Assembly (NCBI GenBank): GCA_014323795.1
Contig: JACONK010000026.1
Span: 4,475-68,474 of the forward strand
Reading direction: 5' to 3'
DNA length: 64,000 bases
Source: Paracoccaceae bacterium
Lineage (GTDB): Bacteria; Pseudomonadota; Alphaproteobacteria; Rhodobacterales; Rhodobacteraceae
Both the position numbers and the translations under genes were made by a program. Shown here in pieces: positions 32,402 to 64,000 of the stretch. Each line of letters opens with the position of its first letter. Position 1 is the first letter of the stretch. The notes under the pieces are model-generated. The model was not told the DNA's origin and searched no databases. It was given only the letters and a program-made list of their open reading frames with translations.

Positions 32402-32558
32402 CGCCTCCTATCCGTTGCCGCATATCCTTTCATTAATGGAATGATTCAATGGAATGATTCGCTTATGGAGGCCACCGGATGTGCATCCCGCCATCCGGTG
32501 TTTGTTGTAAAAAAGGTTCTTATGCTGAGGAACCGCAACCCGAAAGGACATACCGAAC

Positions 32559-60262: not shown

Positions 60263-60802
60263 TCATGCCGGGCGTATCTCTGCCTGTTTTATTCTGAAGT
60301 CGGGCTCCCGTTTTATTTTGAAGTCGAGCTCCCGGTAGAGCTCAAAATCATCAATGCACCTGATGCCAAGATCGGCGCATGCATCGGGAAGCTTTGTTGC
60401 CCCAAGGCGTTTGCTCGGCCCTGATTTTTCCCGCGTCACAACAGTTCGGTTTCGTCGGTCGGCAAGCGCATAATCGATAAGAACAGGATCCTTGCCACAT
60501 TTCTCGAGCTCAATGTCATTAAACGCCGGATCAGCCCCCTGATACCCACCCTGGATCACCTGTTGCACCAGTTCGGGTTTCGCCGCTTCATCCAGGATAA
60601 GGGCAGATTTCACGTCAGGATCTTTGATCCACTCTACATGAGGCCCGTCACCGGTGAACTCCTGGTGGATTTCCCTTGGCATTTTGATCACTCCGGCATC
60701 AGCCTGCGCATGAAGCCAATCCCAAAAGGGCCTGATCCTGTCGACAGGATAAAAGGTTTCATGCGCCTCTATCAGCGTGTTTGCGTCCAGCAGATACATC
60801 AT
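60263..60802 (-). CDS. DUF4411 family PIN-like protein
   Basis: YLLDANTLI, FWDWL, DPVLIDYA, VVTRE, KLPDAC. Confidence 0.85.
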   Translation of the reverse strand: MMYLLDANTLIEAHETFYPVDRIRPFWDWLHAQADAGVIKMPREIHQEFTGDGPHVEWIKDPDVKSALILDEAAKPELVQQVIQGGYQGADPAFNDIELEKCGKDPVLIDYALADRRNRTVVTREKSGPSKRLGATKLPDACADLGIRCIDDFELYRELDFKIKREPDFRIKQAEIRPA

Positions 60803-62049
60803 GCCCGGTGGCCGTCGCGCTGCCTCTGTTTCCGCCTGGCCTTTTCCACAAAGTCAAAAAAAGCGCGGGACCGTGACAGCCTTCATACCAAGCAGACGCG
60901 CCGCGGCCGTGTGGGTCAGGCTACGGTCCTGAAAGGCGCGGTGCACGACATCCACCAAAGCCTGGCCCAGGGCATGGTGCCTAGTCACGTGCCAGGACGG
61001 CCCGCCCTCATTTTCTTTTTGCCTGGCTTTTCCTTTTTTGACCTCTTCCAGCCAGCGTTTGCGATACCGCTCGCACAAGGTCTGGTAGGCAGCCGCCGAT
61101 AGTGCACCCGTTCTTCGGAAGTGCCAGGCGACCATTGGTGCGCTGACCGCCCATTGGCGGGCGACCCGTTCAATGCAGGTGTGCGCCGCTTCAATGTCAT
61201 CGGGGTCAAAGTGATCCCCCGCCTCCCTGAACTGCCCTTCCGGCAACAGGAATGCGCCCGCAACATCATTGCAGAATTGTTCAACCCTGGCCGTTTCAGT
61301 CTTTGGCGATGCGGTTGAAAAATCGCCGCTCACCCCCGTCTGGCCAAGCCAGATGTGCGCCAGTTCGTGGATTAGCGTGAAAGCGCGGGCAGGGCGCGCA
61401 TCATGTGCGTTGATCACCACGAATGGCGCAACCGGGTCCGCAATTGCAAACCCGCGGAAAACATCGGCCCCGATCCTCGACGTGTAATGGCCCAAATCCC
61501 CGAGGACAAGAACAAAAACACCGGCCTCTTCCGCCGCCCGCCGCAGCTGTGCGAACAATTTATCCGGACCACCCCTGCGCAGGGAAACATCCGTATGATT
61601 AAAGCTCAGCGTATCGGCGATCCGCCGAACAAGTTTGCCAACCCCAAGCCCCGGTTTTGCCGACCCCGCAAAGCCCGGGGCCCTGAAATCCTCTTCATCA
61701 AGAAGAAGATCGCGCAGCAGTTCCTGTCTGGCCTTCACATCCCGCAAAAGCGTGTCCAGCATCCCGTTTTCACGGGTTCCGCGGGCGTCCGGCGTTTGCC
61801 GAAAATCCTGCCCCCGCTGCCCGGTTTTGCCAGATAGAAAGTGGCCAACGGGCGTTTGTAGACGCGGGCACATGTGGCCAGCTGCGTTTGCGTGGGCTGC
61901 TTCTCTCCCGCTTCCAGCACCTCTAATTTCTCTTTGGCGGAACTCAGTGCCGAATCGTGCAAACCCAATTTGTGCGCAGCCTCATCAACATCAAATCCGG
62001 CGGTTTGACGCGCCTGGACAAGAATATCCGGATTGACTGCGATGCCCAT
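60799..62049 (-). pseudogene. XRE-HTH + ImmA/IrrE (COG2856-type) metallopeptidase, split by frameshifts
   Basis: N-terminal HTH ORF 61735-62049; peptidase ORF 60854-61873 with FRGFAI and HELAH; shift at ~61818 and at T7 (60856-60862). Confidence 0.8.
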
Positions 62050-62228
62050 GGTTTGCCTCTGCCTGAGGAAATTTGGTGATAGAAATCCGGGCCGGATGTG
62101 TCAATCAGCCGGGATGCCAGGGTCAATGGCCTTCCGGAACACGGTTTCCATCTGCATCTCGAGGAAACAGAAAATGATACAATCACAAGGCTTCCGCCGC
62201 ACCCGATCTATTGATAGAATATCTGTCA

Positions 62229-62238
62229 CCCCCCCCCC
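62229..62238 (+). repeat. C10 homopolymer in the loop of a CTGTC/GACAG hairpin
   Basis: ATCTGTCA-C10-AGACAGGT, between TAGAAT (62215-62220) and the resolvase ATG. Confidence 0.8.
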
Positions 62239-62255
62239 AGACAGGTATGACCCTT

Positions 62256-62372
62256 ATGAAAACCGGATATGCACGAGATTCCACTGAAGAACAAGGACTT
62301 GATCTGCAAACCGAGGTGCTGACCAAGGCTGGCCCCAGCCTGACCCGGTGTGCGCTTGCCGCGAGTGGATGA
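62256..62372 (+). pseudogene. Serine recombinase (resolvase/invertase) N-terminal stub
   Basis: MKTGYARDSTEEQGLDLQTEVLTKAG resembles the GYARVS..Q.L..Q..L motif; stops after 38 codons. Confidence 0.75.
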
Positions 62373-63296
62373 TGGACGAGATTCAGCACTACTGCTACCA
62401 GCTCATGTTCAGAAACGCTTTCCTCGAAAAACAGGGGCAGGCGTTTGAGGATATGTTTTCCCGGATCATGGGCCATGCTTTTTCGGAAGACTTTCAACCG
62501 GTGCGTCCTTACGGCAACAAGGGTGATTTGAAGTGCGATGGATACCGCGCCAGCGACAAGACCGTTTTTCAGTGCTACGCCCCCCGCACCATGAAACTCG
62601 CCGGGCTGAAGGCAAAGATCGATGCCGATTTCAGATGCCGATTTCAACGGTGCCGTCGGCCATTGGGGCAACCGGATGGAGCGGTGGATTTTCGTTCACA
62701 ACGATGAAACCGGCCCGCCTGCCGAGGCGATACAGCAACTGGACGAGATTAACACCGCACACCCGAACGTAAGCCTTGGCCAGTGGGGGTACGCCGAGCT
62801 CTTCAAAATTGTCATGGAACTGGGCTTGCCACAGCTCGCTGGCCTGTTCGGGCGGGTACCCACGCAGGAAACGTTTGCGGAACTTGGCTTTCAGCAGCTA
62901 CAACCGGTGATTAACTCGATCCGGCGTATGCAACCCGACAGGAACCACCTGATAACGGCACCGTCGCCGGCGAAACTCCAGGCCAACGACCTGTCCGATG
63001 CGACGGCCGGTCTTCTTCGTGTGGGGCGCCGGAAGGAACAACTTGTTGAGCACTTCCCGAACCAATACCCCGACCCTGCCTTTGGTAAAGAGATCGCCCA
63101 GGGTTTCCGGAATCGCTATCAGACCCTTCGGGACGAGGGGCTCAAACCCGAGAAAATCTTTGAAAAGTTGCAGCAGTTCGCCGGTGGCATGACCGGCACC
63201 CCCGAACGGCAGGCGGCGGTTATGGCCATTATGTCGTATTTCTTCGAACGCTGCGATATTTTTGAGGACCAGGTTGTGGGGAATACCACAGCATGA
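62369..63296 (+). pseudogene. ABC three-component (Lamassu-like, LmuA-type) effector with predicted nuclease domain, frameshifted by a 13-bp duplication
   Basis: FEDMF...GDLKCDGY...FQCYAP N-terminus and YFFERCDIFE C-terminal motif; removing one repeat gives a 304-aa ORF. Confidence 0.78.
62621..62646 (+). repeat. Exact 13-bp tandem duplication GATGCCGATTTCA x2
   Basis: Read directly at 62621-62633 and 62634-62646. Confidence 0.97.
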
Positions 63297-63541
63297 TTCT
63301 GCCAACCAAACACATGCGTCCTGAGCGGGCACTCCTTACCGTGGGGGCGGATATTCTTGCCCTTCTCAGCCGCCATCCCATGACGGTTTCCGGGGTCTGG
63401 GATGAAGTGCGCAAACAGCGCGGCACACCTGCCAACGTCGCGCCGATCAATTACGAATGGTTCGTTCTGGCCCTTGACCTGCTGTTTATGCTCAAGGCCG
63501 TGACCTTCCGGGATGGCCTGCTGCGGAAGGCAGTGCCATGA
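63293..63541 (+). CDS. ABC three-component middle component (LmuC-type)
   Basis: MILPTKHMRPERALL...YEWFVLALDLLFML; ATGA overlaps on both sides. Confidence 0.78.
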   Translation: MILPTKHMRPERALLTVGADILALLSRHPMTVSGVWDEVRKQRGTPANVAPINYEWFVLALDLLFMLKAVTFRDGLLRKAVP

Positions 63542-64000
63542 TCCATTCCGTCACCAGCGATCTTGAGACTTTCAAAACCCTGACTTTCGGGCCGGGGCTC
63601 AACATCATTCTGGCCGACAAAACCGCTGAATCCACGGATCGGCAAACCCGCAACGGCGCGGGGAAATCCAGTTTTGTCGAACTGATCCATTTCATCTACG
63701 GGGCCAATGCAGGCCCCAAAAGCATTTTTCGGTCGGCGGAACTTGGACCCCATACGTTTGAGGCCAAGGGCGATATTGGCGGGCATGTCGTCACCGTGTC
63801 CCGGTCGGGCGCGAAACCATCCGAGATCAGAATTCAGGGGGCGACGGAACACTGGCCTGTCAGGCCCAAACTGGACAGGAAGACCGGTGATCTGATCCCG
63901 TCCCAAACTAATTATCTGATCCTGTCCCAGACTAATTGGAGACAGGTTCTCGGCGCGCTTCTGTTTGATCTTCGGGCCAGCGAAGAGGCAAGGGGGCGTT
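63538..64000 (+). CDS. SMC-like ABC ATPase (DUF2326-type, LmuB-like), partial at window edge
   Basis: Manual translation MIHSVTSDLETFKTLTFGPGLNIILAD...RNGAGKSSFVELIHF; no stop before 64000. Confidence 0.82.
   Translation, partial: MIHSVTSDLETFKTLTFGPGLNIILADKTAESTDRQTRNGAGKSSFVELIHFIYGANAGPKSIFRSAELGPHTFEAKGDIGGHVVTVSRSGAKPSEIRIQGATEHWPVRPKLDRKTGDLIPSQTNYLILSQTNWRQVLGALLFDLRASEEARGR
63890..63937 (+). repeat. Degenerate in-frame 24-bp tandem duplication
   Basis: ATCTGATCCCGTCCCAAACTAATT / ATCTGATCCTGTCCCAGACTAATT (22/24); LIPSQTNY-LILSQTNW. Confidence 0.85.

Follow-up and report, generated by a model that had tools for sequence, protein, structure and literature searches.

A 13-bp tandem duplication in the effector gene of a Lamassu-family operon of a sponge symbiont, probably an early step of defence-gene decay

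A type II Lamassu-family operon with a divided effector gene

The window, i.e., the whole 64,000-nt stretch of DNA analyzed here, belongs to GM7ARB2, the metagenome-assembled genome (MAG) of a Rhodobacteraceae bacterium that lives as a symbiont in the sponge Lamellodysidea herbacea and has a reduced genome (PMC7313196, Table 1), at 2.58 Mb vs ~4.0 Mb for a free-living relative (PMC7313196). Its last genes, on the forward strand, follow the order effector, middle component (MC) and ATPase, with ATGA overlaps at 63293 and 63538, and the same order is found in about 70 related loci. The effector gene lies in two pieces. The 5′ piece (lmuA-like; 62372..62707, +) encodes native residues 1–87, with the GDxKxDG...QxY motif conserved at the core of a restriction-endonuclease-like domain, and then ~24 out-of-frame residues and a TGA. 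The 3′ piece (62622..63296, +) is a 224-aa ORF, also annotated by gene callers, in which MPIS is followed by native residues 84–303, i.e., the rest of the N-domain and the CTD10 domain. The MC gene (LmuC-like; 63293..63541, +; 82 aa) is intact and overlaps its neighbors by ATGA on both sides. The ATPase gene (ABC/SMC-like, LmuB-like) has its 5′ part in the window (63538..64000, +) and runs 1,319 nt past the window end; in the genome contig it is complete, with 593 aa and no stop. The original prediction had named inactivating lesions in this distal part of the ATPase as a mark of plain decay, and we found none there.

Profile searches gave consistent assignments for all three proteins. The effector matched Pfam CTD10 (E 2e-15, 57.9 bits, cutoff 28.1) and PADLOC PDC-M68A (3.3e-25), with a weak match to the LmuA profile (8.4e-5). 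The MC matched Pfam MC6 (E 2.4e-21, 75.9 bits, cutoff 27.2). The ATPase matched DUF2326 in its C-terminal part (3.2e-40) and PDC-M68B over its full length (4.1e-158), with a weak LmuB match over residues 12–443 (2.1e-9), and carries a Walker A motif RNGAGKS and a deviant Walker B motif LIHDS. None of the three had an NCBIfam match. Judged from these domains, the operon is an ABC-3C/type II Lamassu-family system, i.e., an effector with CTD10, an MC6 middle component, and a DUF2326 ABC ATPase, corresponding to PADLOC candidate PDC-M68. ABC-3C has been placed in the Lamassu superfamily as type II Lamassu, LmuA-LmuC-LmuB (PMC10586767; bioRxiv 10.1101/2025.06.23.660979). The earlier label “Lamassu-like” is hence fair at the superfamily level, the branch at hand being CTD10/MC6/PDC-M68.

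The resemblance to type II Lamassu systems such as DdmABC of Vibrio cholerae extends to the order of effector, small middle component, and SMC/Rad50-like ABC ATPase, to an effector predicted from sequence and model to combine an N-terminal enzymatic domain with a C-terminal docking domain, to a Walker A motif paired with a deviant Walker B motif as reported for LmuB, and to the weak LmuA and LmuB profile matches. There are differences too: the characterized Vibrio system is of the CTD7/MC3 type, whereas the window operon is CTD10/MC6 and its ATPase carries DUF2326; the Lamassu N-domain is a Cap4/DUF4297 nuclease, whereas the effector here would have a restriction-endonuclease-like fold with the GDxKxDG...QxY motif; and the effector is frameshifted here, with PADLOC listing the system only as candidate PDC-M68. 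Our literature search found no experimental work on the CTD10/MC6 branch.

The effector N-domain had no Pfam or NCBIfam family match. An AlphaFold (AF2) model of an intact relative (P0003, from a 100-sequence alignment; pLDDT 85.6) has an alpha/beta core, and a Foldseek search of the PDB returned weak matches to restriction-endonuclease-fold proteins, namely EcoT38I (E 0.0096, TM 0.32), the Avs4 nuclease domain and Can2. Because these were the best PDB matches of the model, the N-domain is likely a nuclease, an assignment as weakly supported as the matches themselves.

Two further observations concern the ATPase. Its residues 297–416 (L004:7805-8164), in the coiled-coil region, also match Pfam CTD10 (E 4e-13), the model of effector C-termini, which could reflect a shared helical architecture or homology between a docking domain and its partner. 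It also contains an imperfect 24-bp tandem duplication (63890..63937, +; 91%), which is in frame and adds 8 aa (DLIPSQTN/YLILSQTN) in a variable loop; this addition is absent in all 69 relatives.

Directly upstream of the effector lies a 53-aa ORF (62211..62372, +) with a below-cutoff match to Pfam Resolvase (E 0.021, profile positions 3–27), probably a serine recombinase remnant that kept only the N-terminal ~25 residues after a large internal deletion. Homology to the corresponding locus of GM7ARB1 (L071), a symbiont from the same sponge sample and the closest relative of the effector operon at the DNA level, starts directly after this ORF. The divergent neighbors on the reverse strand are an XRE-type HTH gene (61735-62049, −), an ImmA/IrrE metallopeptidase gene (60854-61873, −) and a DUF4411 PIN-like protein gene (60263-60802, −). 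The HTH and ImmA/IrrE ORFs overlap in different frames around ...FYLAKPG / GQRGQDFR..., possibly as a frameshifted fusion, and two separate genes are also conceivable from the sequence. Near its 3′ end, the DUF4411 gene carries a 24-bp (92%) in-frame tandem duplication (60286-60334; ELDFKIKR/EPDFRIKQ).

Downstream of the operon, the reading frame of an MmeI-like type IIG restriction-modification gene is interrupted by one stop codon (L004:10014-10016), ~2 kb past the window and beyond the end of the genome contig. The gene reads ...GQGQA*PQCPD..., where GM7ARB1 reads ...GQGQGYTQFPD... with Tyr at the stop; on this comparison, the stop is a derived nonsense mutation. The island around the effector operon had no DNA match in the 40 related genomes searched, and the operon probably forms part of a defence island that GM7ARB2 gained by horizontal transfer and that is now decaying.

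A recent and derived 13-bp duplication

The two effector pieces result from an exact tandem duplication. As the original prediction had described, positions 62621..62633 (+) and 62634..62646 (+) are identical copies of GATGCCGATTTCA (Tandem Repeats Finder, TRF: 2.0 copies, 100% match), and this 13-mer occurs at no other site of the window on either strand. The first copy contains the ATG (62622) that opens the 224-aa ORF, and no additional bases or microhomology are present at the junction. With both copies, the reading frames are 62348/62372..62707 and 62622..63296. With one copy, the gene reads ...KAKIDADFNGAVGHW... and is open for 303 aa from ATG 62372, or for the predicted 304 aa if ATG 62369 is taken as start, without any further stop or frameshift. 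The duplication falls on the invariant effector residues K82, D86, and F87, located in the helix that follows the GDxKxDG...QxY strands, and thus splits the catalytic domain in two. Since the one-copy reading aligns over its full length to hundreds of relatives in which D86 and F87 are invariant, the claim that the duplication shuts off the effector holds up well. What annotation presents as an odd 224-aa “CTD10 protein” would then be a freshly inactivated Lamassu-family system.

GM7ARB2 is a short-read MAG, and the second copy might in principle be an assembly or sequencing artefact rather than part of the DNA. Against this, the 26-bp two-copy sequence is also present in an ENA megahit contig (k127; SRR3667357, sponge metagenome) and in a JGI contig (3300017830), which match the genome at 100% identity for 8.9 and 8.5 kb, respectively, and differ from it in their contig ends. 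Since three assemblies (NCBI MAG, JGI, and ENA megahit), two of them from metagenomes, came out of different pipelines in base-for-base agreement, an assembler artefact is very unlikely, to the point of being close to negligible. Judging by its name, the ENA contig was built with k = 127, a length at which the 26 bp would fit inside single read-derived k-mers. Four contigs have a record of the 224-aa fragment, which covers the junction with its N-terminus, and we inspected two of them.

The ancestral state is given by GM7ARB1, whose MC and ATPase are 95% and 88% identical to those of the window (tblastn). Its locus has a single GATACCGATTTCA, with a clean 13-nt gap opposite the second copy of the window, and because this closest relative carries one copy, the duplication is derived. 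The copies being identical, the closest relative having one copy, and the MC and ATPase being undegraded, the event must also be recent, as had been proposed. Among 5.8 billion proteins we recovered 725 effector homologues, the best full-length ones having 302–303 aa with 57–74% identity and 97–100% coverage, and no full-length effector exceeded 74% identity to the one-copy reading. The one-copy allele was found in no assembly, these assemblies probably deriving from one sponge specimen and representing consensus sequences that hide minority alleles, and every contig found to encode proteins identical to the MC and ATPase has the effector in its two-copy form. The two-copy lesion is the majority allele of the sampled population and probably fixed.

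Short tandem duplications across the genome

Exact short tandem duplications are a general feature of this genome. We counted 92 with a unit of at least 10 bp and 49 with a unit of at least 13 bp, compared to 3–11 and 0–1, respectively, in genomes simulated from a 3rd-order Markov model of GM7ARB2 with a primitive-unit filter. The duplication in the effector is therefore not a chance repeat. The window itself contains a second exact 13-bp duplication (AATGGAATGATTC ×2; 32435-32460), located in a spacer ~100 nt upstream of rpsM (S13), where no gene is broken.

The same type of lesion affects a second defence gene. In a type I-E CRISPR-Cas locus, an exact 13-bp tandem duplication (AACGGGGCTTGCC ×2; contig C18:230701-230726, L084:9702-9728) shifts the reading frame of cas1. 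Around it, Cas6e, Cas2, Cas3, Cse1, Cas7, Cas5, and Cse2 all have full-length Pfam matches, and a small CRISPR array of five 30-nt repeats, spaced at 61 nt, lies between cas2 and cas3. Screening for ORFs that are gained when one copy is deleted flagged ~10 loci, of which only two, the effector and cas1, could be confirmed as broken genes. Most of the flagged loci were either spurious antisense frames in GC-rich DNA or duplications that lay just beyond a gene (upstream of argB, at the 3′ end of prmA, and upstream of a flavoprotein gene), and a probable membrane-transporter break at C6:70453 had no Pfam support.

These data also bear on whether the two copies are the 13-bp target-site duplication left by an excised mobile element, as the original prediction had considered. 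The copies abut without junction microhomology, as fill-in of a staggered cut would give, and mobile elements are associated with the island (the recombinase remnant) and with the effector in relatives: foreign DNA replaces the GM7ARB1 effector from 24 nt downstream of the duplication site, and an ISL3-type element sits within another effector (L080). However, the 92 duplications vary widely in unit length (10–54 bp) and show no peak at 13 bp, and junction microhomology is lacking at half of those with two copies, the effector site included, so that the duplications reflect a general process rather than the target-site duplication of one element. Moreover, neither element termini nor residual bases are present between the copies, and precise excision in bacteria normally also removes one target-site copy. 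An excision footprint thus retains little probability.

Recurrent loss of the effector and the meaning of the lesion

Next, we asked how often such operons lose individual genes, using a census of 78 related loci from named genomes, of which 69 have a full-length ATPase (no stops or shifts) and 74 an intact MC. The effector alone was destroyed in 7 of the 69 operons with a full ATPase, by seven different lesions: replacement of ~546 nt by 700 nt of foreign DNA (L071), an ISL3-type insertion (L080), in-frame internal deletions that removed the catalytic core (L083 and L074), truncations (L081 and L036), and two frameshifts (L073), the last in a long-read MAG and conceivably due to sequencing errors. 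Such errors cannot account for the other six lesions, which are structural. By contrast, a truncated ATPase was seen in only one further locus (L077), and the MC was intact in 74/74. With the ATPase ~twice as long as the effector and lesions taken as proportional to gene length, finding 7/7 in the effector has a binomial p = 2.9e-4, and counting L077 (7/8) gives about 0.002. Effector loss is therefore recurrent, having struck seven related operons vs a single one for the ATPase, and the window effector is an eighth independent case. It is the effector, and not the twice-as-long ATPase, that is repeatedly destroyed, both across unrelated lineages and in two symbionts residing in the same sponge, which lost it independently. 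A side observation concerns the L074 and L083 deletions, which keep the extreme N-terminus and CTD10 of the effector, so that the short remaining ORFs could still dock on the sensor complex.

Conservation differs between the effector and its partners. Of 119 columns conserved to at least 95%, the effector read with one copy deviates at 5, where relatives average 1.5 deviations and as many as five occur in only 7/100. Among its deviations is E235K, a position that does not vary in 100 relatives, so that even an exact reversion might leave the effector short of full function. The MC deviates at 0 of 14 conserved columns and the ATPase at 1 of 116. The dN/dS ratios vs GM7ARB1 (0.09 for MC, 0.34 for ATPase; 0.09–0.36 overall) do not discriminate between hypotheses.

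The pattern of effector-only loss fits a costly or autotoxic abortive-infection effector, and a role of the sensor pair that is independent of the effector is also conceivable from these comparisons. A Vibrio Lamassu system is known to be toxic (PMC10586767; bioRxiv 10.1101/2025.06.23.660979). Constraint on the ATPases of effector-broken relatives was not measurably relaxed (Mann-Whitney p = 0.40).

One way in which the divided gene might still be used is through its 3′ piece: the 224-aa ORF would dock via CTD10 on the MC-ATPase complex as a nuclease-less adaptor, yielding an effector-free or dominant-negative complex and keeping translational coupling to the MC and ATPase. Several features speak for this. 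The 3′ piece is in frame with the ATG at 62622, and an AAGG lies 9 nt before this codon, resembling the ATPase’s own site; from this arrangement, the ORF may be translated, which would preserve the coupling. CTD10 lies wholly inside the ORF, the C-terminal domain of the VcLamassu effector is its complex-binding part (bioRxiv 10.1101/2025.06.23.660979), and the MC and ATPase are intact in the seven relatives that lack the catalytic part of the effector, two of which (L074 and L083) kept CTD10. On the other hand, the ATG is a chance product of the duplication, and because the ATPases of effector-broken relatives are not different, there is no specific sign of a new function. We regard continued use of the split gene as quite improbable.

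The original prediction had also proposed population bet-hedging through reversion at appreciable frequency. As a contingency switch, the OFF state of a toxic effector would revert often enough to keep some ON cells and would be maintained by selection. The copies are exact and losing one restores the frame precisely, the remaining operon is intact and undegraded, and cas1 is broken by the same type of lesion. ON/OFF switching by short tandem duplications also has precedents in cap3A of Streptococcus pneumoniae and phcA of Ralstonia solanacearum, and the recurrent effector loss in the family suggests a costly effector. As in cap3A and phcA, a short exact duplication within the ORF gives the OFF state here, and losing one copy would restore ON. 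Unlike in these genes, where both states and reversion were seen experimentally and different duplications recur in the same gene, the effector site shows the OFF state only, was seen once, and lies in a genome full of similar neutral duplications, such as the one at 32435 upstream of rpsM. There are two copies of the 13-bp unit and no hypermutable multi-copy tract; the relatives lost their seven effectors through lesions that cannot revert (IS insertion, deletions, truncations, replacement), and the nonsense codon in the neighboring MmeI-like gene is likewise irreversible; and the effector carries E235K plus four further conserved-column deviations. With no one-copy allele in any assembly or protein collection searched, and in a context of general decay, frequent reversion is unsupported, and we consider such a switch unlikely.

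A related idea is that the OFF state itself is selected, the duplication being revertible and the sensor pair kept, either as a reserve of ON revertants or for an effector-independent role of that pair. The latter, if true, would also explain the effector-only loss in 7 of 69 relatives. We hold selection of this kind to be an outside chance as well. Should mixed alleles be found in reads, this would be, to our knowledge, the first tandem-duplication switch on a defence system.

Taken together, these results lead us to favor, with a probability of roughly 0.7, a recent spontaneous 13-bp duplication that frameshifted the lmuA-like effector, i.e., ordinary early decay of a defence gene and not a proven reversible switch. 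Plain recent decay is favored because the genome holds 92 duplications, cas1 is broken likewise, a nonsense codon interrupts the MmeI-like gene, and none of the assemblies showed a one-copy allele. Two observations run counter to it: the MC and ATPase are undegraded, which also fits an OFF state worth keeping, and the copies are still identical, with short tandem duplications known to revert (pneumococcal cap3A, Ralstonia phcA). Thus, of what had been predicted, a recent and formally revertible knock-out of a Lamassu-family effector stands, while bet-hedging does not find support and an excision footprint is unlikely.

By analogy with Lamassu structures and a review of these systems, a nuclease-like effector would normally be kept inactive on an LmuB dimer with LmuC until the complex senses foreign DNA ends or structures, whereupon the active effector would be released and kill the cell. 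The duplication breaks off the effector after residue 87, midway through its restriction-endonuclease-like core, and the killing arm would therefore be off while the MC and ATPase remain intact. We see this lesion as an instance of two broader trends, the accumulation of exact short tandem duplications in this genome and the preferential loss of the effector in this family. The latter may stem from the cost or autotoxicity of an abortive-infection effector, from life in a sponge, where defence may be needed less, or from both. Precise loss of one copy, which may occur independently of RecA, would restore the frame, with no sign of a useful rate or of selection.

The locus resembles host-restricted symbionts whose defence genes and other accessory genes turn into pseudogenes, in that the genome is reduced, the effector, cas1, and the MmeI-like gene each bear a single fresh lesion, and the co-resident sister symbiont GM7ARB1 has lost the same effector independently. 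It differs in that the lesions are few and very recent and the MC, ATPase, and other cas genes are intact, which places it at an early stage and not among eroded loci. Overall, we favor the view of an ordinary but clean case of early defence-gene decay in a symbiont, with recurrent effector-only loss as a modest by-product.

Finally, the GM7ARB1 lesion has features of its own. The 700-nt insert in the middle of its effector (L071:5287-5986) is unrelated to the gene and includes a G/C hairpin and an 81-aa ORF. Its left breakpoint lies only 24 nt downstream of the position of the window’s duplication, a closeness that may be coincidence or may mark a fragile spot.
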